Shown here: in pieces, positions 2,865-60,846 of the stretch | How the letters are laid out: every line of letters starts with the position of its first letter | Numbering within the stretch: position 1 is the stretch's first letter | Assembly: GCA_903847095.1 (NCBI GenBank) | Contig: CAINCQ010000016.1 | Location: 333 to 64,332 of the forward strand | Direction: 5' to 3' | DNA length: 64,000 nt | DNA from: an uncultured bacterium | GTDB taxonomy: Bacteria; Patescibacteriota; Minisyncoccia; Minisyncoccales; UBA5738 | Position numbers and translations under genes: made by a program | Notes under the pieces: generated by a model | Database searches by the model: none | What the model was told of the DNA's origin: nothing | What the model saw: only the letters and a program-made list of their open reading frames with translations

Positions 2865-3347
2865 TTACAGGAAATCATCCCTGTCCCCTTTTGCTGATTT
2901 GTTTACGGACAATTTAGCCGCTTCCAACGCCGCTTCCAATCTGGCAGCATTAATCACTTGATCGGGATCGACCGCCCTGCCCGCCTCAATCCCGGCCATG
3001 AAATCCTTAATAGCCGCGACACAGTCTTTGATATCGCAATCGATCAAGGAAAGACCCTCTATGCCCCAGGCAAAGCCGTCATAAATAAATATTCCGTCCT
3101 CATCGATTCCGACAAGGAATGAAGCCTTATATTTTTGCGCTAACTTTTCGCCTAGCTCGCGATACCAAGTTTCCGGCTTGTTACTTGATCCCAAACCTCG
3201 CAACCGCGAACGGGCGATCGCGACAATAACGGGATCTTTCGGAAAATAGCCTATGTCGATCCGGAAATCGGAAGCAATGACTTTTTTCAACGCTTCCCTG
3301 AGCTTTTCTTGCATCTCAACCTTTTTTTGTCTTGAAATTACGATCAT
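2865..3347 (-). CDS. hypothetical protein (160 aa)
   Basis: ORF with a strong SD (GGAGGTcattggaATG). No motif recognised. Confidence 0.6.
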   Translation of the reverse strand: MIVISRQKKVEMQEKLREALKKVIASDFRIDIGYFPKDPVIVAIARSRLRGLGSSNKPETWYRELGEKLAQKYKASFLVGIDEDGIFIYDGFAWGIEGLSLIDCDIKDCVAAIKDFMAGIEAGRAVDPDQVINAARLEAALEAAKLSVNKSAKGDRDDFL

Positions 3348-3489
3348 TCCAATGACCTCCTTGTAAACGAACTGACTTTAATTATTTTTAAAATAAAAGC
3401 GAAAATATGTCAAATTTTTTTAATCTTCGAAAAAAATGCTATAGTTTTAAATTCGCGATACTTTTTGCGAATTACAAAAAATACGATTA

Positions 3490-4362
3490 ATGGAAGAAAC
3501 GAAAACAATAAAAATTTCCGACGTGGATTTTCCGGAGGAATTGAAAACAATTCCCCAGCCTCCGAAGGTTATTTATGCTCAAGGCCTACCGGTAAAAAAA
3601 GAAGCCCGGGTCGCGATCGTGGGAACCAGAATGTGCTCCGATTACGGAAAAATGGCCGCTTCCAATATTGCCCAAGGACTGATTGACGCCGGCATTGTTA
3701 TTGTTTCCGGGTTGGCGCCCGGGATCGACACCATCGCCCATACGATAGCCGTGGAAAACAAAGCCCGGACGATCGCGGTTATCGGCTCCGGCCTTGACAA
3801 AAAAAGCATTTATCCCCAGACTAACGTGGTGCTCGCCCAAAAGATTTTGGATTGCGGCGGTCTGCTGATCAGTGAATATCCGGAAGGAACTTCCGGGGCA
3901 AAATTCACTTTTCCCAGGCGTAACCGAATAATTTCCGGTTTGTCGCTCGCCGTAGTGGTAATCGAAGCTAAGGAAAGATCGGGCTCGCTGATAACGGCCG
4001 AATGGGCACGAAAACAAGGAAAAAAGATTTTCGCGGTTCCCGGATCGATCTATTCAGCCAATTCGCGCGGCTGCCATTGTCTAATAGGACAAGGAGCGAT
4101 ACTAGCCCAAAACGCAAAAGATATCCTGGATGAACTCGGAATCGGACATATTAAACCCTTGGTTGGAAAAACGATAATCGAAGGGAGTGAAGAAGAAATT
4201 GCCATATTAAAATCATTACGCGAAGGCGCCCTGGACGTCGATAAGATCATATTAACGACCGGCTTGCCGGCAAAAAAAGTCTTAAGCATCCTCCCTGTCC
4301 TAGAAATTGAGGGAAAGATTAAAGACTTGGGAAAAAACATCTATGCGCTTAGTCATTGTTGA
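3490..4362 (+). CDS. dprA: DNA processing protein DprA/Smf
   Basis: 290-aa ORF. Rossmann-like core VSGLAPGIDTIAHTIAV..GSGLD..FPRRNRIISGLS, typical of DprA. Confidence 0.85.
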   Translation: MEETKTIKISDVDFPEELKTIPQPPKVIYAQGLPVKKEARVAIVGTRMCSDYGKMAASNIAQGLIDAGIVIVSGLAPGIDTIAHTIAVENKARTIAVIGSGLDKKSIYPQTNVVLAQKILDCGGLLISEYPEGTSGAKFTFPRRNRIISGLSLAVVVIEAKERSGSLITAEWARKQGKKIFAVPGSIYSANSRGCHCLIGQGAILAQNAKDILDELGIGHIKPLVGKTIIEGSEEEIAILKSLREGALDVDKIILTTGLPAKKVLSILPVLEIEGKIKDLGKNIYALSHC

Positions 4363-7589: not shown

Positions 7590-7614
7590 TAGCTTTTTTA
7601 TTACCTGCTTTTGA

Positions 7615-7642
7615 TTGACAAAAGGCCAAAAAAATCGATAAT
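7615..7642 (+). promoter_or_regulatory. sigma70-like promoter upstream of tRNA-Leu
   Basis: TTGACA (7615-7620), 16-nt spacer, GATAAT (7637-7642). Confidence 0.45.
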
Positions 7643-7720
7643 AGATACTGTTCGCTAACCGCCGAAGTGGTGGTTCGGCGGGCACCGCGTGAACATAAAC
7701 CATCTTTTCCATTAAAATAC

Positions 7721-7804
7721 GCCGAAGTGGTGAAACTGGCATACACGTAGCACTCAAAATGCTATGAGGGCAACCTCGTGTGGGTTCAACTCCCACCTTC
7801 GGCA
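7721..7804 (+). tRNA. tRNA-Leu (anticodon CAA), class II with long variable arm, no encoded CCA
   Basis: Hand-folded. Acceptor GCCGAAG/CTTCGGC. Anticodon stem TAGCA/TGCTA with loop CTCAAAA. Variable arm GAGG-gcaa-CCTC. T arm GTGGG-TTCAACT-CCCAC. Discriminator A. Confidence 0.95.
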
Positions 7805-7810
7805 CAAATT

Positions 7811-7837
7811 AAAAAACGCGCTTACGCGCTTTTTTTA
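7811..7837. terminator. short bidirectional hairpin terminator after tRNA-Leu
   Basis: AAAAAACGCGCTTACGCGCTTTTTTT: a GC stem flanked by an A-run and a T-run. Confidence 0.5.
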
Positions 7838-7988
7838 AATTCGTCCCCCAAACTAATAATTACCCTCCCTCTCCAATCGCCAAATTTTTGCATTTAATCC
7901 TCTCTCATCATTCATTTGGCTTTTCGTTTTCTTCCCCGCGTTAATTGCAAAATATATACTTTATTGTATTGTAAAATTGTGATTTCGA

Positions 7989-8177
7989 ATGATGCTGACT
8001 ACGGTAATCGGACTTATTCTTTGCCTGATCGGAACCGCTCTCGTAGTTTTGGCTTTAGGCTATATTTTCAAACAGGATGAATGGATTTCCGGATGGATTT
8101 CTCTGATAGGACTTTTTTTATGCTGGGCGGGCTTGCTGTTGATAGCGATCCCGGCCCTCGAACAACTGACGCATTAA
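7989..8177 (+). CDS. small membrane protein (62 aa, 2 predicted TM)
   Basis: ORF with two hydrophobic helices, followed by a terminator at 8179-8201. Confidence 0.55.
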   Translation: MMLTTVIGLILCLIGTALVVLALGYIFKQDEWISGWISLIGLFLCWAGLLLIAIPALEQLTH

Positions 8178-8178
8178 T

Positions 8179-8201
8179 AGAGCCCAACAGGCTCTTTTTT
8201 T
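8179..8201 (+). terminator. intrinsic terminator
   Basis: AGAGCC-caaca-GGCTCT followed by T7. Nearly the same hairpin as the purC terminator at 60128. Confidence 0.75.
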
Positions 8202-8249
8202 ATATACACGTTTTAATATTAGATTACCGCCTGCCCTTTTTATTCACTA

Positions 8250-36615: not shown

Positions 36616-36631
36616 ATAATCTAATTCCTCC

Positions 36632-36889
36632 TTAAAACCCCAGTCCTCCCATAGCCTGCATCTTTTGCGCCACGGTCATTTGGATTTTCTTCATCGCTTC
36701 ATTCAGCGCTTCCTTTAAAAGCTTTTCCTGCTGGTCTATCGGTAATGTCGGGTTAAGCTTGATATCTTCAAATTCCAGTTTGCCGTTAAGCGTTACTTTT
36801 ATGCCCTGTTTCTCGTAATCAAGCCGTTCGTTTTTCAAAGCATTCTGGATCTCCTGCAATTTCTTCAATTGTTTTAATTGTTCAAACAT
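36632..36889 (-). CDS. ybaB: YbaB/EbfC-family nucleoid-associated protein
   Basis: 85-aa ORF. The coiled N-terminus, the (V/I)TLNGK core and the C-terminal MGG..GF tail are typical of YbaB. Confidence 0.7.
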   Translation of the reverse strand: MFEQLKQLKKLQEIQNALKNERLDYEKQGIKVTLNGKLEFEDIKLNPTLPIDQQEKLLKEALNEAMKKIQMTVAQKMQAMGGLGF

Positions 36890-37112
36890 TGGTTTATTTC
36901 AAATCGCGCGCCGGATATTGAATCCTTAAAGGATAGAATTATCGAGCTTGATTGTGAAAATTTGTTTATGCGACAAAGGTCATTATACTTAATTGCCCTG
37001 ATTAAATCAAAAAAATGGCGCCGGATCTTAACGCCGCTAAAACCGTTTCCTACATATATATTATCACGGAATGGTCGAATATCCTTAAGAAGCGAACCCG
37101 GACAAAACCGTT

Positions 37113-37139
37113 AAAAAGACTGACCACGAAAGTGGTCAG
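37113..37139 (-). terminator. intrinsic terminator of a short minus-strand transcript
   Basis: Minus strand reads CTGACCAC-tttc-GTGGTCAG followed by TCTTTTT. No annotated minus-strand gene lies upstream of it. Confidence 0.7.
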
Positions 37140-37288
37140 ATATAAAATAACCGGCTGAAATGCTCACTAGAGATATCCTGCCGTACTCTAGTTTGGCGCC
37201 GGACGGCCTTATCCTATCTACTCTGCTAGGCTAAGACGAGCATAGAGGTAAGAACTAGACACATAAACCCGTTTACACCTCCGGCATC

Positions 37289-37316
37289 ATATTATCAGAA
37301 AAAATAGTATAAGCAA
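37289..37316 (-). promoter_or_regulatory. sigma70-like promoter (extended -10) of the short minus-strand transcript
   Basis: Minus strand reads TTGCTT (37316-37311), 16-nt spacer, TGaTAATAT (37297-37289). Confidence 0.5.
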
Positions 37317-37374
37317 ATCAACCGCCTTTTGACTTTATCCAAAAATCCTATAATTTTAAAGTACGTGTACGAAC

Positions 37375-37399
37375 GAAAAAATCTGGCTTGGTTGCCAGA
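37375..37399 (-). terminator. intrinsic terminator of a second short minus-strand transcript divergent from elp3
   Basis: Minus strand reads TCTGGC-aaccaa-GCCAGA followed by TTTTTTCG. Confidence 0.65.
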
Positions 37400-37554
37400 C
37401 TTTAAAGGATGATTATTGGAAGAACCGCTATATTGACCAGTTGATCCGAGGTTCAGATCCTAGAAACCTTCCCATTTTTCATAGACGGTCTAAGTCAGGG
37501 ACATAGAAACGAATATAATCTTCATTCCTCATTCTCACCCCCCTATAAAGCATT

Positions 37555-47330: not shown

Positions 47331-48275
47331 TTAAACGCGGCTCACTCTTGTAAGCCCGGAGCACGGAATGATCTCGACACCCTGTCTTTGCAGCTCGTCA
47401 AGAAACAAGTTAACGCCCAGAGAATCGGAGCTTATATGTCCGGCGATCACCACATTGATATTCGCGGCTTCGGCTTCCTTCCGATATTCCTCGGAAACAT
47501 GCATTCCGACCGTCGTCCCGATCCCGGCCATCGCCATTTTCGCGTAAAGCTTGGCTGAACCTGCCGTCCCGCCCGTTATTTCCGAAAGGATGATCTTTCC
47601 GCAATGACTTTCCGGATTGCCAACAAAGATCTTGGGCCCGACCCCGATCTTAGCCGCTTCCCTGTATTCCGGGATCTGGCTCAAAATATCCATCAAGTCG
47701 CTTAGCCTTTCGGGCGCGGCCTCCCCGATCTTTTCCCGCAAAAAATTAGCGGCCAGGTTGTCACACGGCGTATGGCAACAAATAAGATTAAATCCCATCA
47801 GTCTGGCCGTATCGACCGTACGTTGGTGGTTTTTGGCATTCAAACCGCGGGCAACCTCGGAAATCCTTTCCCGCATCAATCCTTCGGCCACGTTGATCGG
47901 CACACCATATAAATTCAAAACCTCGGCTTGGAGCTCCATCACATCGGATAGATTGGCTAATCCCTTGCCGATCGGATGGTGGGAAAAGATCAGGTCGATA
48001 TCCCCGAGGAATTTTGCCATCAAAATCTCGGCCGGATCGATATCGATCCCGGCCAAAACCTTTTTGACTTCAATGTCGTTTTTAACGTAAAGCAGCTGGC
48101 TGTCCGCATAAGGATTGGTCAGCTTGGTCGTATCAAAATCCGCTTTCTCCTGATTGGACAAGCGGTCGTAGTTTTGGCGGCGGCGAGCCAGCGTTTTTTC
48201 CACCGCGGCCCGCCCGCGAAGATCGGCATCGATCCCTTTATTTAGCGCTAGGTTGTAAATTTCGGATACCTTCAT
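47331..48275 (-). CDS. NIF3 (DUF34)-like dinuclear metal-centre protein
   Basis: 314-aa ORF. LIFSHHPIG, CCHTPCDN and AGHISSDS correspond to the conserved His/Asp ligand blocks of NIF3 proteins (by eye). Confidence 0.55.
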   Translation of the reverse strand: MKVSEIYNLALNKGIDADLRGRAAVEKTLARRRQNYDRLSNQEKADFDTTKLTNPYADSQLLYVKNDIEVKKVLAGIDIDPAEILMAKFLGDIDLIFSHHPIGKGLANLSDVMELQAEVLNLYGVPINVAEGLMRERISEVARGLNAKNHQRTVDTARLMGFNLICCHTPCDNLAANFLREKIGEAAPERLSDLMDILSQIPEYREAAKIGVGPKIFVGNPESHCGKIILSEITGGTAGSAKLYAKMAMAGIGTTVGMHVSEEYRKEAEAANINVVIAGHISSDSLGVNLFLDELQRQGVEIIPCSGLTRVSRV

Positions 48276-48553
48276 TTCTGTTTGAATATTTTTGCGTAAG
48301 CTCGCCTATTAATTTCTTCTGCTGATCCAAATCCAATACTTGCCGGCGGATCCGGGCTTTTTCGTTTCGAATATGTTTCCTGGTACTTGCTGGAATTGTG
48401 TTCATTATGATTTACTGCTTTATACTTCGCGCAACCTTTAGTCCAATCTTAAATTTATACTACAAAACACCTTAATTATCAAGCCAAACTAAATCTGCGC
48501 CGGATGTAACTTAAATCCGGCTTAAGCAATTTGTTCAAAAAAATCCGTTTTTT

Positions 48554-49093
48554 TTAACGGATTTGAAGCACTCTGTTTGATTGGTAAAAACTTTCCACGC
48601 TTCCTTTTTTCCACCAGCCCTTCAATTCAGGTTGTCCGATAAGATCCGGCCGGTGGAATGGCACGTTCCCCGGAGATAAAACCCGGCCCAAACAATGCCC
48701 ATCGGCTTTTGAACGGATCTGAATCAGTTCCCTACCCTTAAACCACCGACCCATACGCAACAAACAGCGCCGGATCGCTATGTCCTGGATATGGGTTCGG
48801 GCTGTTTCCTGGTGCTTGTAATCGAACCCCGACTCGACATTGGTTGGATTGTCGTCATAGACATTGCAAGCGTCATAAATGAGCTGGCCAACGATATGAG
48901 AATTCTTTATCAGGAAATAATAATATCCATCCTCATAAAGAGCGCAAGCGCCCAAAAAATCCACCAAAGTCCTGTTGACCGTCCAAACCAGACGCCAGTT
49001 CCCTTCTCCGTATATCTCGTTCCATTCTTTAAATCTAAAGTCCCGCTCCGCTCCCAAATACCCCGGCGTCCCGATAGTTATCCAATTTTCCAT
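48554..49093 (-). CDS. hypothetical protein (179 aa)
   Basis: ORF preceded by GGAGGaaatATG. Trp/Tyr-rich, no motif recognised. Confidence 0.6.
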   Translation of the reverse strand: MENWITIGTPGYLGAERDFRFKEWNEIYGEGNWRLVWTVNRTLVDFLGACALYEDGYYYFLIKNSHIVGQLIYDACNVYDDNPTNVESGFDYKHQETARTHIQDIAIRRCLLRMGRWFKGRELIQIRSKADGHCLGRVLSPGNVPFHRPDLIGQPELKGWWKKGSVESFYQSNRVLQIR

Positions 49094-49181
49094 ATTTCCT
49101 CCAATGGCTTGTTAACGATCTTTAATTTTTGAAAACGGCTATATTGTACCTTAATCCGTTTAAGCGTCAAGGATGCCTAAT

Positions 49182-49207
49182 AAAAAAGCTGGCTTTTAAA
49201 AACCAGC
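49182..49207 (-). terminator. intrinsic terminator after the 21-aa ORF
   Basis: Minus strand reads GCTGG-tttttaaaag-CCAGC followed by TTTTTTATT. Confidence 0.65.
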
Positions 49208-49253
49208 GTCTAATTTGTGTCAGTGAAGGACGGCACCATAAAGCTTCAAGCGT

Positions 49254-49319
49254 TCAAGCGCCAGCCAACCCGACTACGGCCATCGCGATAATGACCAGTA
49301 CGGCAATGAGTTTCCTCAT
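49254..49319 (-). CDS. 21-aa hydrophobic micro-protein (MRKLIAVLVIIAMAVVGLAGA), tentative
   Basis: ATG at 49319 lies 11 nt downstream of GGGAGGT (49336-49330). TGA at 49256-49254, terminator 47 nt further on. Below the ORF-track size cut-off. Confidence 0.4.
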   Translation of the reverse strand: MRKLIAVLVIIAMAVVGLAGA

Positions 49320-49888
49320 AGTTAGGGGGACCTCCCTATACCCTTCCCGCCTTTTTATGCCGGGGCAGAAAAGCAGGAACAAAACTGCGCTAGGCTCTTT
49401 TCACCAAGTTGTACCGCACGCGACACCGGCGTACTTTTCGTAGGCCTATCCGCCGGATCCGCCACAAGAACTGGCTAGTTTTTTCATTAGCAGTATATCC
49501 TCCAAGGTTTCGTTTTTGAAACCAGAACGTTAACTGGAATAGCTGGGTATTTACAATCGATCGTTTGTCCTTTCGGACAGCCAGGTTCACCATTACTCTA
49601 TGTACCCTAAGCATCCGGTACTAGCTCGTCCTCGGTATGGCGTGGCTGCTGGAAAAAATATGCCTCATTGTTTCCGTTTCACCTCCCGAAAAACCATGTC
49701 TTACTTCTCTGCTTACGCAAAACCGGAGCCTTGCGGAGTCCCAGCCTTACCGCTCCTTAATGGAACACGTCTGTCGAGCCCTGTTCGGGACCCTAGGTAA
49801 ACCAGGATGTAGTTTCAGACGATAATGATTGTTGCTACCATAACTGGCGATCGATCGATCCTCACCTCCTTTTTAAGTTGCTGAAGCT

Positions 49889-49916
49889 ATTTTACCCGAA
49901 ACGCGCTATTTGTCAA
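49889..49916 (-). promoter_or_regulatory. near-consensus sigma70 promoter inside the non-coding region
   Basis: Minus strand reads TTGACA (49916-49911), 16-nt spacer, TAAAAT (49894-49889). Confidence 0.6.
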
Positions 49917-50065
49917 AAGTCCGGGCTAAAATAAAAGGGCGGTTATCCGTCCTTTAATTAAATATCAGCATACGCTGGGGTTTCGGTCGTTTCGAAATCG
50001 GTTAAATCGGTTAAATCGGTTGGCGTTGGGCGCGAATAATTTTTAACCCGTCCGCATTGTCTGCT

Positions 50066-50350
50066 TCATGGTCCGGGGTTAAAGGGCAGATACATAACAG
50101 AAGCGCCGTTGTCGGTAGAAACATTGGTTCGAGAAACTCCCAAGGAGCCAGCTTCGGATACCGGTGGTCCGGGACCAAGTGCCAGACACATTGCCGCGAT
50201 CAGGAACAATACAAGCAATGGCTCAGCAAAGATACCTTGAAGTCCTGCACCGGATTCGCTGGGCAAATCGCCCGAGTCAGTGGAAGTCGTTATTTTGGCC
50301 AGCAGGATCGCTCCCAAAAACAGCACTGCTATCGTAAGCACGTTGAGCAT
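50066..50350 (-). CDS. 94-aa protein with two hydrophobic segments
   Basis: ATG at 50350 lies 7 nt after the exact SD GGAGGTGA (50364-50357). MLNVLTIAVLFLGAILLA.. and ..IFAEPLLVLFLIAAMCLALG. Confidence 0.6.
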   Translation of the reverse strand: MLNVLTIAVLFLGAILLAKITTSTDSGDLPSESGAGLQGIFAEPLLVLFLIAAMCLALGPGPPVSEAGSLGVSRTNVSTDNGASVMYLPFNPGP

Positions 50351-50428
50351 ATTTTTTCACCTCCTTTTCGCTCTTCGACGTTATTCCACCTTCGGAACAA
50401 ACCGTCGGCAATCCGTGACCACCTAAGG

Positions 50429-50626
50429 TCAAATGATCACCGCCAAATCGGGCGGGCCGGTTCCGGCATGTAACAACCTCGGCCGCAAGACCGACTTTAC
50501 CGTTATTTTCCGCCCCCTGGCGGGAAAAATCAGACAGTCGCCCAAACCGCTCGGTATAACGCATTGCTTCTTAGCTATTCCCGTCATAACGGCGCGGCGC
50601 AGAAAGGCGCATGCTCCCTTAATCAA
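50429..50626 (-). CDS. 65-aa basic protein, tentative
   Basis: TTG at 50626 lies 1 nt after GGAGGTGA (50635-50628). The sequence is not informative. Confidence 0.3.
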   Translation of the reverse strand: MIKGACAFLRRAVMTGIAKKQCVIPSGLGDCLIFPARGRKITVKSVLRPRLLHAGTGPPDLAVII

Positions 50627-50692
50627 ATCACCTCCTTACGGGATACGACTGGAGTGTTCACAATCCTGGTTTAAAAAATTCAGGACATCCCT

Positions 50693-50746
50693 TTAGAAAG
50701 CCATCCACAATCCGCCGAGCTTCCGCTTAACGGATTTTGCACTCAT
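50693..50746 (-). CDS. 17-aa micro-ORF MSAKSVKRKLGGLWMAF, tentative
   Basis: ATG at 50746 lies 6 nt after GAGGT (50757-50753). It shares K(F/L)GGLWM..AF-stop with the micro-ORF at 50833..50922, with synonymous codon differences. Confidence 0.35.
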   Translation of the reverse strand: MSAKSVKRKLGGLWMAF

Positions 50747-50832
50747 TCAGATACCTCGAAGCGTTGTTCAGCAGGACATTCCAGGCTGGGTAGCGCAGCA
50801 ACATAGGTTGACGCTTAGCCGGCCGCGGGAAG

Positions 50833-50922
50833 CTAAAAAGCATTCCCAATTAAAAATGTCCGCATCCTGCGCTCCATCCAAAGGCCTCCGAACTTCCACA
50901 CAAGAAGCTGGCTTTTTCTGAT
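50833..50922 (-). CDS. 29-codon micro-ORF (..SQLLVWKFGGLWMERRMRTFLIGNAF), start codon unclear
   Basis: The frame opens 4 nt after the 8-mer GGAGGTGA (50934-50927), i.e. 7 nt after its GGAGG core, at a non-canonical ATC (50922). The first canonical in-frame start is GTG at 50901. Paralogous to 50693..50746. Confidence 0.25.
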   Translation of the reverse strand: MRKSQLLVWKFGGLWMERRMRTFLIGNAF

Positions 50923-50998
50923 GCTTTCACCTCCTACCGCTTTATCGATTATGATTGTTAAGGAACTGTTAAAATGAATTTATCGGATTTAGGGTTTT

Positions 50999-51027
50999 TT
51001 GTCAAAGGGTTGCCTGTTTGCTAATAT
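50999..51027 (+). promoter_or_regulatory. sigma70-like promoter of purB
   Basis: TTGTCA (50999-51004), 17-nt spacer, TAATAT (51022-51027). Confidence 0.65.
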
Positions 51028-51079
51028 TATAAGTTGATGTTAGTATTTCCCATTGTTCCTTAACAAAAGGAGGAAAAAA

Positions 51080-52492
51080 ATGACCGAAAAAGAGAAGGTA
51101 AGGTTTTTTGACGGCGTATCGCCTTTGGATCACAGATGGCATCCGGAAATCACACCCGTACTCCCATATATATCGGAAAGGGCCCGGGTTAAATTTCAGG
51201 CCTGGGTAGAACTCGCTTTGTTCAAATATTACGTACACATCGGAAAAATAACTAGGCCGGGAGCAATCCAAGAGGCGGAAACTGCCTACAAAAATCTGGA
51301 CATTGATCGAGTCTACTATATAGAAGACAACGTCACCGACCATGATATGCGGGCATTGGTAGAAGCCTTCAGGGAGCTGATCAGCGAAGAACTCCGGCCT
51401 TGGATACATTTTGGCGCTACGTCCTACAATATCATCAATAGTGCCGACGCCATCCGCCGCAAACTCCTGATCCTGGAAGTGATCATTCCGGCAATGAAGG
51501 ATCTGCAGAGAGAAATGATAAGAATAGCTTTGCAGGAAAAAGATACGCCCCAAGCCGGACGAACCCACGGCCAGCACGCCGTTCCCATCACCGCCGGGTT
51601 CGCTATGGCCCAAATCATTGACCGCCTGGGCGAATCGATCCTGCGCCTGGAAAATCTAGCAAAAGATTTGCCGGGAAGCTTTGCCGGAATGTGCGGAGCT
51701 TACAATGCCACCGCCCTGCTCTTGCCCGATCCGCTCGACTTTGAAAGGAAAGTCCTTGCCGAAGTCGGCATCATCGCGGCCCGGATCTCGACCCAGATCG
51801 TTCCGCCCGAACCAACCCAACGCCTTTTCGAGGAAATCAAGCATGCCTCGACAGCCCTCGCCACCCTGGCCGATAATATGCGAAATCTGCAACGGCCGGA
51901 GATTGCCGAGTACGGAGAGTTTTTCGGTAAAACACAGGTTGGATCTTCCACCTCGCCTCATAAACAAAATCCCAAGAATTGGGAAAACATCAAAGGCGTA
52001 TGGAAGATCATTGTCGGAAGAATGCTGACCCTCGACCTGAACGCGATCAGCGAGCATGAACGAGACCTCACCAACTCCCAAGGAATGCGCCAGGACGACG
52101 AGATCATCGCCCTCTTCTATATGCAAATAAAGCGGGCAACCAAGATCCTGAAGAAAATGCATATCGACCGGGAACGCATGGAACAAAATCTGTTCCTTAC
52201 CGGCGACCAGATGCTTTCGGAAGCCGCCCAACTGGTCTTAAGCTACCTCGGCTATCCCAATGCCCATGAGAAAGTGAGGGTTTTGGCTAAAAAGATCCGC
52301 GATTCCGGAAAAATCAAGGAACGTCATGCTCTGCTTTCACTGATGCAATCCGATCCGGAGCTTGCTCCGTATATGGCACGGATGACCGAAAACCAATTCT
52401 CCGCGCTATCCGACCCACGCGATTACATCGGCATCGCGCCCCAAAAAACCGAATCTGTTTGTGCCTACTGGAAGGAAAAACTTAATCTTTAA
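51080..52492 (+). CDS. purB: adenylosuccinate lyase
   Basis: ORF 51053..52492. ATG at 51080 follows AAAGGAGGaaaaaa. Fumarate-lyase signature GSSTSPHKQNP. Confidence 0.9.
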   Translation: MTEKEKVRFFDGVSPLDHRWHPEITPVLPYISERARVKFQAWVELALFKYYVHIGKITRPGAIQEAETAYKNLDIDRVYYIEDNVTDHDMRALVEAFRELISEELRPWIHFGATSYNIINSADAIRRKLLILEVIIPAMKDLQREMIRIALQEKDTPQAGRTHGQHAVPITAGFAMAQIIDRLGESILRLENLAKDLPGSFAGMCGAYNATALLLPDPLDFERKVLAEVGIIAARISTQIVPPEPTQRLFEEIKHASTALATLADNMRNLQRPEIAEYGEFFGKTQVGSSTSPHKQNPKNWENIKGVWKIIVGRMLTLDLNAISEHERDLTNSQGMRQDDEIIALFYMQIKRATKILKKMHIDRERMEQNLFLTGDQMLSEAAQLVLSYLGYPNAHEKVRVLAKKIRDSGKIKERHALLSLMQSDPELAPYMARMTENQFSALSDPRDYIGIAPQKTESVCAYWKEKLNL

Positions 52493-52494
52493 AC

Positions 52495-52520
52495 AAAAAG
52501 CCGCTATAACGGCTTTTTTC
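52495..52520. terminator. bidirectional intrinsic terminator between convergent purB and mltG
   Basis: AAAAAGCCGctataaCGGCTTTTTTC. Confidence 0.8.
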
Positions 52521-52541
52521 TTTAACCTTATACAACCCGCT

Positions 52542-53543
52542 TCAATTATCCAGATATTTCGCTTTGTTGACCAAATGCTCCGCGTACGTTTTGGAAAAAA
52601 TCGTTTTTCCGTCCCTGGCACTTAAATAAAAAAGATAGTCGGATGCCGTCGGCTCGATCGCCGCTTCAATGCTTTCGATCCCGGGATTGCAGATCGGCCC
52701 CTTGGGCAATCCTCCGTATTTATAAGTATTGTAGGGCGAGTCAACATATTTATCATCCATGCTCGGATGATCGCTCACCAGAAAATAAAGCAGAGTACTA
52801 TCCACCTGCAGAGGCCAGCCCTTGCCGGTCCTCTTCCAAAGAATACCGGCAACGATCTTTTTATCTTCCTTGGTCCTCACCTCTTTTTCCAGCAGCGAAG
52901 CCATCACTACGATATCGAAAACTTTTTTATCCTGTTTTTTAATTTCTTCCCGGATTTGAGGCGTCAATTTTTCTCCGAAATTCTCCAGCATCTGTTGGGC
53001 GATATCCCGGGATTCGGGATTGGCCGCGATATAATACGTATCCGGAAAAAGATAACCTTCAAGACTCGCTCCATCGGGAGCATCCTGTAAGAAATCGAAC
53101 TCATCCCTAAAACCGTCCGGTATCCCATTAAGAACCGCGGCCAAGAAATCGGTTTTCGCGGCTATTTTTTTTGTTTCAAGATTTTTGGCGATATCTCCGA
53201 CTGACCAGCCCGGGATCACGGTAAACTCTATCGGTACCGTTTGGCCCCGGGATAATTTCTTGATTATTTGAGAAGTATCCTGGTTTTTAAGATTATAAAT
53301 TCCGGCCTTGAGTTTTTTTAAATTTCCGGAAAAAACCGTTTCAAAAATAAAAAAAATCTTGCTTTTTATGTAACCTTCCGCTTTAAGATTGTCGGCTATT
53401 TTCAGAAAATTTTCTCCGGGAAGAACAACGAAATTTTCCTGTTGGGACCTCGGCTGCCGGTTGGACTCGAAAAAGGCGGCTCCCGCCGCTACCACCACGA
53501 CCATTACGGCCGATATCAATATTCCCCACTTCTTTTTTTCCAT
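52542..53543 (-). CDS. mltG: endolytic murein transglycosylase MltG (YceG-like)
   Basis: 333-aa ORF. N-terminal TM and YceG-family core ..ASLLEKEV..GILWKR..PLQVDSTLLY..SPYNTYKYGGLPKGPICNPG. Confidence 0.85.
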   Translation of the reverse strand: MEKKKWGILISAVMVVVVAAGAAFFESNRQPRSQQENFVVLPGENFLKIADNLKAEGYIKSKIFFIFETVFSGNLKKLKAGIYNLKNQDTSQIIKKLSRGQTVPIEFTVIPGWSVGDIAKNLETKKIAAKTDFLAAVLNGIPDGFRDEFDFLQDAPDGASLEGYLFPDTYYIAANPESRDIAQQMLENFGEKLTPQIREEIKKQDKKVFDIVVMASLLEKEVRTKEDKKIVAGILWKRTGKGWPLQVDSTLLYFLVSDHPSMDDKYVDSPYNTYKYGGLPKGPICNPGIESIEAAIEPTASDYLFYLSARDGKTIFSKTYAEHLVNKAKYLDN

Positions 53544-56094: not shown

Positions 56095-56232
56095 TTATCC
56101 AACCTCCTTTGTTAAGAAACTATTTTCTTAGAGATTATTGGATTTTCCTGATTTGTCAACTCGTGAATATTAAAAAGCAGCCCGCCCCGGCTGTTTTCTT
56201 CCTCCCGCCATATGAGCCGGCAACCCAAATCT

Positions 56233-60116: not shown

Positions 60117-60127
60117 ATTTAAATGAT

Positions 60128-60150
60128 AGAGCCCATAACGGCTCTTTTTT
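60128..60150 (+). terminator. intrinsic terminator of purC
   Basis: AGAGCC-cataac-GGCTCT followed by T6. Confidence 0.75.
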
Positions 60151-60310
60151 GTAAATTTATTTATTTTCTTAATGTATTTCGACACCGCAGTGCATTAACC
60201 CCCCGATCTTGCGACCAAAGGGACCCCCTTGAAGCATATTAATGCTTTCGGATTACTTAAGAAATCCTTTTAACTCAATACCTCGATGCATAGCATATGA
60301 AGTATTTCGC
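60149..60310. repeat. dispersed structured repeat, copy B (chimeric/degenerate)
   Basis: The first ~50 nt are nearly identical to copy A (TTGTAAATTTATTTATTTTCTTAATGT[A/G]TTTCGAC[A/G]CCGCAG). The remainder aligns with the reverse complement of copy C, with extra hairpins and mismatches. Confidence 0.7.
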
Positions 60311-60343
60311 CAATAAAAAAAGGAGTTTGCCTCCCTTTTTCGC

Positions 60344-60514
60344 TCACTCGAGTATTTTCCTTAAAGAATCTCTCAAGGATTCCGCTTGCATTTCTAAAAA
60401 ATCCGCTATGGTTTCAGGATAAACTTCGCCGCATACCATTACGAAAGTATTTTGGTCGCGAAATTTCTTAAAGTCTTTCCAGTTGATATCTCCGCCGATG
60501 GTCATGTCGCTCAT
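60344..60514 (-). CDS. 56-aa hypothetical protein (below ORF-track cut-off)
   Basis: Own translation MSDMTIGGDINWKDFKKFRDQNTFVMVCGEVYPETIADFLEMQAESLRDSLRKILE. ATG at 60514 lies 8 nt after GAGGAG. A stop-proximal hairpin lies at 60315-60340. Confidence 0.5.
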   Translation of the reverse strand: MSDMTIGGDINWKDFKKFRDQNTFVMVCGEVYPETIADFLEMQAESLRDSLRKILE

Positions 60515-60846
60515 TACCTTTTCTCCTCTGCTTTTAAAGTACTAACTCCGGTTAATTATGTTTTGTCGCTCGGCTTCCCCAGGAAAATAAACACCCGATC
60601 CTTCCGGCAACAAACAATCATTTTTTTGCGTATTATACAAACGATAAAGAATGCGGATAAACGATTTTTACTTCTTGACTTGCCCTGAAAATCGTCTATC
60701 GAAATGTCCGGCTTATCGGCCTAATCCCGCGACCTTATACCCTCTTTTTTCCTTATCTGGTTTGAAAATAATTTAAAAATAAGAGAAAGTCAAGCATTGA
60801 AAAAACAGAGGTTAGACCTCCAAAACCGATCGAACTAAATGCCAAA

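Follow-up and report, generated by a model that had tools for sequence, protein, structure and literature searches.

Two units of conserved small open reading frames, some with apparent AUC or AUU starts, beside purB in an uncultured patescibacterial lineage

The contig CAINCQ010000016.1 of an uncultured Patescibacteriota bacterium was analysed over a stretch of 64,000 nucleotides (the window), in which an interval of ~2 kb beside purB had been described in an earlier note, made from the sequence, as devoid of conventional genes. The interval holds two conserved, predicted transcription units (TU1 and TU2) on the minus strand and is dense with very small putative protein genes. A promoter and terminator scan, together with conservation, indicates that each unit runs from a sigma-70-type promoter to an intrinsic terminator, with predicted spans of ~50970 to 49928 for TU1 and ~49882 to 49180 for TU2. 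TU1 carries four open reading frames (ORFs), named pepA, pepA', pepB and p94. TU2 would be an RNA of ~700 nt in which a conserved leader of 560 nt precedes an ORF at the 3' end, pep21; its elements come in the order extended Shine-Dalgarno sequence (SD) and micro-ORF 1, conserved hairpins, micro-ORF 2, micro-ORF 3, pep21 and terminator. The ORFs of both units, the threefold 9-bp repeat, the hairpin with its T tail, the near-consensus promoter of TU2 and the final terminator (49207-49182) all lie where the earlier note had placed them (Table 1). The small genes of the interval look real from their sequence, and some of them seem to begin at AUC or AUU, not AUG. The best explanation, which we consider probable as a whole, is a conserved small-ORF locus confined to one lineage, the Paceibacteria/Nealsonbacteria-like bacteria of the candidate phyla radiation (CPR).

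By exact matching, the window belongs to a genome assembled from a lake metagenome, with the annotation Nealsonbacteria/Paceibacterota. Syntenic loci were located with the flanking 179-aa protein and the 94-aa protein p94 as anchors, and the sample consisted of the window and nine species-level relatives, that is ten species (L-numbers are locus labels). The main group near the window includes L013, L011, L009, L022, L017 and L025, and L020, L019 and L023 are more divergent. In the relatives compared, the locus is single-copy and strictly syntenic, and its neighbours at all loci include purB, the gene of the 179-aa hypothetical protein, NIF3 and a peptidase S11 gene. A purB-anchored search of genome contigs returned no related loci, and alignments of p94 against metagenome contigs and against genome contigs each gave only the known contig L009/L010. 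The interval aligns with the syntenic relatives at 73-79% identity across ~1.9 kb. The 4-fold degenerate sites of purB, the 179-aa gene, NIF3 and yceG served as a neutral yardstick and are 0.48-0.56 identical between the window and L011, L009, L022 and L017. In the same four comparisons, identities of 0.60-0.88 were obtained for all segments between the promoter of TU1 and the terminator of TU2, mostly 0.70-0.87 for the pieces outside ORFs, and identity falls to 0.38-0.61 just beyond the second terminator. Because identity within the interval exceeds that of the 4-fold sites, purifying selection is indicated over its whole length, and a decaying spacer is thus excluded.

Coding capacity was assessed from single-nucleotide codon changes across species, by setting the share of synonymous changes against the expected share in each of the three frames. 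A frame-specific synonymous excess was found for five ORFs, namely pepA (18 synonymous and 12 non-synonymous changes, p = 7e-5), pepA' (9 and 8, p = 0.007, including a Leu codon read as TTG, CTA or TTA), pepB (31 and 49, p = 0.0065), p94 (53 and 75, p = 0.0003) and pep21 (10 and 5, p = 0.0006). The other two frames were never significant, and the excess seen in antisense frames is the usual mirror effect of the sense frame. Moreover, the small ORFs are kept open in 6-10 related species, and each has a GGAGG 5-13 nt upstream of the start, the distance to ATG or ATH (H being A, C or T) being 7-13 nt in all but two of them. The exceptions are pepA', with a weak SD (GAGG/GGGG), and micro-ORF 1, where the distance from SD to ATG is 10-23 nt across species and 23 nt in the window. 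These data support the translation of pepA, pepA', pepB, p94 and pep21, and they bear out the array of micro-protein genes that the earlier note had offered as one of its candidate readings.

Another of these readings, a decayed operon, fares differently. That the interval is such a remnant or a pseudogene, or that its ORFs arose by chance in a fast-evolving spacer, would fit with the lack of Pfam and NCBIfam matches, with the several overlapping frames that are open in the TU1 leader in relations that differ among species, and with the absence of pepB in L013 and of pepA in L017. However, conservation lies far above the neutral level, the synonymous excess is specific to the frames of the five ORFs, and start and stop codons persist in as many as 10 species. 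The pseudogene reading is rejected because ORFs of the plus strand contain stops in relatives, no frame of either strand matches Pfam, and a homologue search among 5.8 billion proteins recovered only pepB itself, with no relative of greater length. Decay is therefore largely refuted, and we give it hardly any credence. The plus-strand ORFs in question, of 104, 138 and 87 aa, were discarded as genes for their in-frame stops, and none of the ten longest mechanical ORFs of the two strands matched Pfam. The earlier note saw no ORF beyond 94 aa with any recognisable feature; this is true of conserved ORFs only, since mechanical ones reach 104 and 138 aa on the plus strand and 95 aa on the minus strand.

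For pepA and pepB of TU1, AUC, AUU or AUA occupies the start position predicted from the SD, and the SDs are unusually strong, with 8 nt. The box GGAGGTGA, which we call the extended SD, is perfectly complementary to the anti-SD at the 3' end of 16S rRNA. It occurs seven times on both strands of the window, five of them within this 2 kb and all five on the minus strand, far more frequently than chance allows. In pepA, ATC lies exactly 7 nt past GGAGG in seven of eight species and is replaced by GTC in L023; an upstream in-frame canonical start is lacking in five of the eight, and GTG or ATG is present in L013, L019 and L023. In pepB, ATT, ATC or ATA lies 7 nt past GGAGG in all seven species that have the gene, and an alternative TTG start at 50626 is confined to the window and L025. 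In five of the seven species, a stop codon in the same frame lies 12 nt before the pepB start and excludes any start other than ATH there. The combination by which we define a non-AUG start with extended SD, i.e. a conserved AUH codon at fixed spacing from GGAGGTGA or GGAGGTGG, is thus found for pepA in 7/8 and for pepB in 7/7 species. Such starts are known from Staphylococcus aureus, where conserved AUU and AUA codons, one of them on a 61-aa small protein, always go together with an extended SD and yield ~10% of the output of AUG (PMC13009471). The S. aureus cases cvfC1, ccpN and infC resemble ours in being small ORFs with an AUH start conserved across species, an unusually long SD and fixed spacing (PMC13009471). 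They differ in that our locus belongs to another phylum and shares no sequence homology with them, two or three such ORFs stand in one operon, AUC is preferred, and initiation is predicted from sequence.

Table 1. Predicted features of the two transcription units beside purB (positions in the window)
Feature	Position	Strand	SD	Remarks
pepA, 29 codons (IRKSQLLVWKFGGLWMERRMRTFLIGNAF)	50922-50833	-	GGAGGTGA, 50934-50927	ATC start at 50922
pepA', 17 aa (MSAKSVKRKLGGLWMAF)	50746-50693	-		ATG start
pepB, 64-65 aa	50626/50623-50429	-	extended, 50635-50628	ATT start at 50623
p94, 94 aa	50350-50066	-	extended, 50364-50357	in public gene annotations
micro-ORF 1, 8 codons (MVATIIIV)	49841-49815	-	extended, 49869-49862	coding test borderline, p = 0.07
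micro-ORF 2, 15 codons (MRHIFSSSHAIPRTS)	49668-49621	-	extended, 49686-49679	kept in 7 main-group species
micro-ORF 3, 13 codons (MKKLASSCGGSGG)	49487-49446	-	GGAGGA, module 49446..49503	12-13 codons, aligned stop, 7 species
pep21, 21 aa (MRKLIAVLVIIAMAVVGLAGA)	49319-49254	-	GGGAGGT, 49336-49330	hydrophobic, signal-peptide-like
promoter P1 of TU1	50977..51005	-		TTGACA-N17-TAAATT, 10/12 positions; -10 TA[AG][AG]TT in relatives
promoter P2 of TU2	49889..49916	-		TTGACA-N16-TAAAAT, 11/12 positions
intrinsic terminator T1	49928..49955	-		GGACGG...CCGCCC then TTTTATTTT
intrinsic terminator T2	49176..49207	-		8-bp stem then TTTTTTATTA (terminator scan); conserved in relatives
3x perfect 9-bp tandem repeat AAATCGGTT	49995..50021	.		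p94 3'-untranslated region (UTR)
5'-UTR motif GTTCCTTAACAA	50955..50966	-		TU1 5'-UTR; also purB 5'-UTR, 51055-51066 (+); inverted-repeat pair

The boundaries of the two units are conserved as well. Promoter-like sites number 9, against 3.5 +/- 1.8 in shuffled sequences; the -35 hexamers of P1 and P2 are invariant or nearly so, and their -10 hexamers vary within TA[AGC][AG][AT]T only. The -10 of P2 reads TA[AGC]AAT in the window, L013, L022, L017, L009 and L011, and in L023 this promoter takes the form TTGACA-N17-TATAAA. At T1, the stem GGACGG/CCGTCC and the T-tract are kept in all species, with one A.C mismatch in the window copy. The repeat upstream of it, AAATCGGTT, is threefold in the window and twofold in the near-identical strains L005 and L008; other species have two copies that have diverged.

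Among the products of TU1, p94 represents a narrow family, with 7 representatives at 50% identity and 14 clusters at 90%. The motif GPGPP is invariant, extended to LALGPGPP in most members, and the tail, which includes TNVSTDNGASVMYLPFNPGP, is rich in Ser and Gly. AlphaFold2 modelled p94 as a low-confidence helical hairpin (predicted local distance difference test, pLDDT, 62.7), with helices at 2-24 and 37-57 and a disordered tail, and the protein is predicted to carry two hydrophobic helices of the membrane type. Searches of Pfam, NCBIfam, PHROGs, PADLOC and the PDB sequences gave no above-threshold match for p94, pepA, pepB, pep21 or the 179-aa neighbour. The composition of TU1 varies: it is reduced to pepA and p94 in the divergent relatives L019 and L023, and pepB is absent from these two as from L013. 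In L019, an additional unit lies upstream of pepA (3985-4300), with a promoter, GGAGGTGA and a 26-aa ORF (MPGPPAVAITGISTIAVCIASRSFML) whose peptide has a GPP motif in common with p94 and pepB. A 61-aa gene called upstream of p94 in the same species was rejected, its frame not being conserved. A further candidate frame, 'pepX' (50840-50772), reached p = 0.03 in the coding test. A single long frameshifted protein spanning pepA, 'pepX' and pepA' was also rejected, as frame relations differ among species and the frame overlapping pepA has no coding signal. Finally, a comparison of window positions 47331-53543 with L013 revealed a mosaic of nucleotide identities: 95% for NIF3, 93% for yceG and 96-99% for pepA and the TU2 leader, against 74% for purB, 76% for the 179-aa gene and only 69% for p94. 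This pattern suggests recombination, and p94 appears to evolve unusually fast.

In TU2, micro-ORF 1 is found in 10/10 species as an ATG...TGA frame of 8-9 codons that encodes hydrophobic or small residues only, despite ~40% nucleotide divergence. Micro-ORF 2 has a conserved N-terminal half and tolerates a 1-nt frame change in its C-terminal half, and the 3' end of micro-ORF 3 lies inside a hairpin that shows compensatory changes; for both the coding test was not significant. In pep21, the C-terminal GMAGA and the stop are kept in 10/10 species, and the peptide is 10-21 aa long. Read from the sequence, it has the n/h/c pattern MRK / LIAVLVIIAMAVVGL / AGA. It is not a full Sec-type signal peptide, the stop following directly in 10/10 species with no mature domain, and it looks like a bare signal peptide. 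TU2 is ~300 nt long in L023, with only micro-ORF 1, hairpins and the final peptide, and has one further module in L019 and L020; we take the core of the locus to be pepA, p94, micro-ORF 1 and the final peptide. Successive SD boxes of TU2 keep a distance of 154-197 nt (mostly 165-197) in all species, regardless of the presence of one, two or three modules, as measured in the window (49869-49330) and in L013, L025, L011, L009, L022, L017, L020, L019 and L023. These ~180-nt units from SD to SD are not internal repeats, no mutual sequence similarity having been detected in a repeat search. L013 carries at 7860-7900 (~49350 in the window) a 30-nt insertion that duplicates AAAAGGCGGG in the loop of the hairpin upstream of the pep21 SD, consistent with this region being a hairpin loop.

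The nature of pep21 raises two further explanations. In the first, pep21 and possibly micro-ORF 1 would be precursors of an exported hydrophobic signalling peptide similar to the short hydrophobic peptide (SHP) and enterococcal pheromones. Its basic N-terminus (MRK), hydrophobic core and end of small residues (AGA) agree with this, GMAGA is the best-conserved part even in the 10-aa versions, and the peptides of micro-ORF 1 (MATIIIIA, MAIAMVVGA) resemble mature SHP-type peptides. In the documented SHP/Rgg systems and the enterococcal pheromone and inhibitor precursors (PMC3150281, PMC7564271), signal-peptide-like ORFs of 21-23 aa, with a basic N-terminus and a conserved hydrophobic C-terminal end, release their C-terminal 7-8 residues as the active peptide. 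However, no gene for an Rgg/RRNPP receptor, a PptAB-type exporter or Opp is adjacent, the neighbours at all loci include no helix-turn-helix or tetratricopeptide-repeat (HTH/TPR) regulator, and the 560-nt leader has no counterpart in shp genes. Sequence homology is lacking, the closest matches of pep21 being below threshold (Pfam LPAM_1, E = 0.55; NCBIfam SE2200_fam, E = 0.053), and the host is a CPR bacterium, not one of the Firmicutes. We therefore regard a pheromone precursor as quite improbable. The second, a type I toxin-antitoxin system in which pep21 or p94 would be a membrane-damaging toxin limited by a long structured 5'-UTR and an antisense RNA, appears very improbable. A small hydrophobic peptide, a long 5' leader, its SD within or beside hairpins and a plus-strand promoter-like site at 49530-49557, the only one inside TU2, are what such a system would offer. 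This antisense site is not conserved, however, its -10 region being altered in L011 and L009, the locus is single-copy with strict synteny, PADLOC gave no match, and the charged tail typical of many type I toxins is missing from the peptide.

At the RNA level, covariance models of Rfam 15 applied to the whole window at gathering thresholds recovered two tRNAs only. At E <= 10, the sole match within 48900-51200 was twister-P3, with 16.3 bits against a gathering score of 39.9. The families tested without a match include OLE, GOLLD, ROOL, HEARO, raiA, tmRNA, RNase P, SRP, 6S, group I and II introns and riboswitches, and ARAGORN found no tRNA or tmRNA gene in 48900-51200. The stable helices it had reported did not withstand the analysis, since the minimum free energy is not below that of dinucleotide shuffles for either the TU2 leader (563 nt, z = +0.14) or the TU1 leader (333 nt, z = -0.73). 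With RNAalifold, a weak covariation term was obtained for TU2 (-3.45) and an unfavourable one for the TU1 leader (+2.96), based on 5-6 sequences that give little power, and covariation tests in general have little power with only ten sequences. Compensatory changes affect 15 of 138 predicted TU2 pairs, including the stem at the micro-ORF 3 stop and the hairpin of the first module. A predicted long-range helix, GACUCCGCAAGGC/GCCUUGCGCAGUU, was rejected as it is broken in L017 and L013. Local elements recur in divergent species: micro-ORF 1 is followed by a bulged hairpin around CCCGAAYAGGG, another hairpin directly precedes the SD of pep21, and a loop closed by a GGG/CCC clamp presents this SD. 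A global fold like those of known large structured RNAs is not supported; there are local hairpins only. The reading of the earlier note as one or two long structured RNAs with small ORFs therefore stands in part: two units exist and their parts outside ORFs are conserved above the neutral level, whereas Rfam gave no match, folding energies gave no signal and covariation was only weak.

These results bear on the alternative that the chief role of TU2, and perhaps of the TU1 leader, is that of a functional dual-function RNA of the S. aureus RNAIII type, with the peptides secondary, in which the sequence outside ORFs and the boxes complementary to the anti-SD would act by base-pairing, ribosome loading or titration, or protein binding. 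Outside its ORFs, ~440 nt of the TU2 leader are 0.70-0.80 identical as against 0.48-0.56 at neutral sites, the 15 compensated pairs and the recurring hairpins fit, and GGAGGTGA boxes are enriched and regularly spaced in every species whatever the number of modules. The class is established, and S. aureus RNAIII/hld and Bacillus subtilis SR1/SR1P are alike in being promoter-to-terminator units of 0.3-0.7 kb, mostly non-coding and yet conserved, with an encoded peptide of at most ~26 aa (PMC12612679, PMC12310071). In contrast to these, our locus has no supported global fold or base-pairing target, it has several ORFs, and its peptide lies at the 3' end. The lack of any Rfam family even at E <= 10, the folding energy equal to that of shuffles, the weak or unfavourable covariation and the long-range helix broken in L017 also speak against such an RNA. 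Moreover, the middle modules are not present in L019, L020 and L023, so that most of the RNA is dispensable, and the peptides themselves are under purifying selection. We consider this explanation, the main rival, unlikely on the whole. OLE RNA with OapA, ROOL and GOLLD provide a further likeness, as conserved non-coding RNA of 0.5-0.7 kb beside a small membrane-protein gene in a compact genome; here, however, Rfam matches and a thermodynamic or strong covariation signal are lacking, and the RNA is full of SD-led ORFs. An RNA-level role of the TU2 leader, either cis-regulatory or dual-function, is likely from its conservation. A bolder idea, which seems improbable to us, is that TU2 is a new modular ribosome-engaging RNA whose main effector in these bacteria with reduced genomes is the RNA and not the peptides, and which senses or buffers initiation capacity or fidelity. 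It could consist of one to three units of ~180 nt, each opening with GGAGGTGA and a micro-ORF, and together with the AUH ORFs of TU1 it could couple the state of free 30S subunits and initiation factor 3 (IF3) to the production of small membrane peptides.

The reading that we favour, and hold to be probable, is that of two small-protein operons with extended-SD initiation, including initiation at weak AUH codons, and with leaders that gate downstream peptides. TU1 would be a polycistronic mRNA for pepA, pepA', pepB and p94, in which the extended helix between SD and anti-SD would let ribosomes start at weak AUH codons. Such starts would limit the output and render it sensitive to the fidelity of initiation (IF3), as is reported for small ORFs of S. 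aureus. Leader peptides from the ORFs nearest the 5' ends, namely pepA, micro-ORF 1 and the extra modules, may together with the leader outside ORFs and its local RNA structures act in cis to gate the translation of downstream membrane peptides, and the end products would be small membrane-embedded or exported peptides. We take the Salmonella mgtCBR leader (mgtM, mgtP; MgtR) to be comparable, with a leader of several hundred nt, more than one SD-led short ORF, local alternative hairpins and a very small hydrophobic peptide among the operon products. Unlike mgtCBR, our locus has no large downstream gene, its 560-nt leader preceding only a 21-aa ORF; no attenuator terminator was identified in the leader, and the micro-ORFs have no run of a single diagnostic codon. 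Leader peptides of the upstream-ORF type in long 5' leaders were also found in the S. aureus study (PMC13009471).

Several points weigh against these small-protein operons. Micro-ORFs 1-3 stay below significance in the substitution test, and micro-ORF 2 tolerates a frameshift. The GTC at the pepA start position of L023 is not a plausible start codon, and the pepA' start, ATG in four species, is ACG in two (L022, L025). A translated internal Ile codon would also vary among ATT, ATC and ATA. The ~440 nt of the TU2 leader are conserved without a coding explanation. Transcription and translation of the locus are inferred from its sequence, and by analogy a leader-peptide or attenuation role is a candidate.

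The surroundings of the locus show some additional features. The 179-aa neighbour (48554-49093, minus strand) represents a widespread hypothetical family without a Pfam domain, with >200 clusters across Parcubacteria/Patescibacteria at 50-75% identity, and its gene is not beside the locus in L019. Between the TU2 terminator and this gene, several relatives contain one or two extra genes (L011 6690-7829, L012 3729-4886, L022 4028-5161 and L009 5767-7853); those of L011, L012 and L022 have weak Pfam matches to Eco57I or N6_Mtase, and the pair of L009 has no Pfam match. This spot may be an insertion hotspot. The motif GTTCNTTAACAA has nine matches at <=1 mismatch in the window, against 1.6 expected, with copies at 50955-50966 (-), 51055-51066 (+), 49109-49120 (-), 3361-3372 (-) and 56109-56120 (-). 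It lies just upstream of the SD or start in TU1, purB, the 179-aa gene and ORF 2865-3347. The TU1 5'-UTR has kept it in all species, and in most relatives this copy takes the form GGTTC[ACT]TTAACAAT. The motif is a candidate 5'-UTR or operator element used throughout the lineage. The ranking of the interval as the largest gap of the window, put forward in the earlier note, depends on how genes are called and could not be reproduced: public gene calls include the 94-aa ORF, which leaves gaps of 729 and 972 nt, and a naive scan for ORFs of at least 100 aa yields other gaps of 939, 730, 660 and 607 nt. The first three of these (36616-37554, 60117-60846 and 7590-8249, the last adjoining a tRNA at 7721-7804) might contain similar small-ORF units.

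The locus belongs to known kinds, namely small-ORF operons, leader peptides and non-AUG starts with extended SDs, in an under-annotated phylum. It settles no long-standing question. Genomes of CPR/Patescibacteria are small and poorly annotated, and here a 2-kb "gap" holds at least five, possibly nine, conserved small ORFs, which escape standard gene-calling pipelines, in part because AUC or AUU seems to be the start codon in two of them. It defines new small-protein families, i.e. p94, pepA, pepB and the GMAGA-ended peptide, together with a conserved leader RNA that is a candidate translational control element. The locus offers a tangible example for the annotation of small ORFs and non-AUG starts in lineages that have not been cultured, and the combination of an extended SD with a weak start codon, recently shown in S. 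aureus, seems to be in use in a phylum very distant from it as well.

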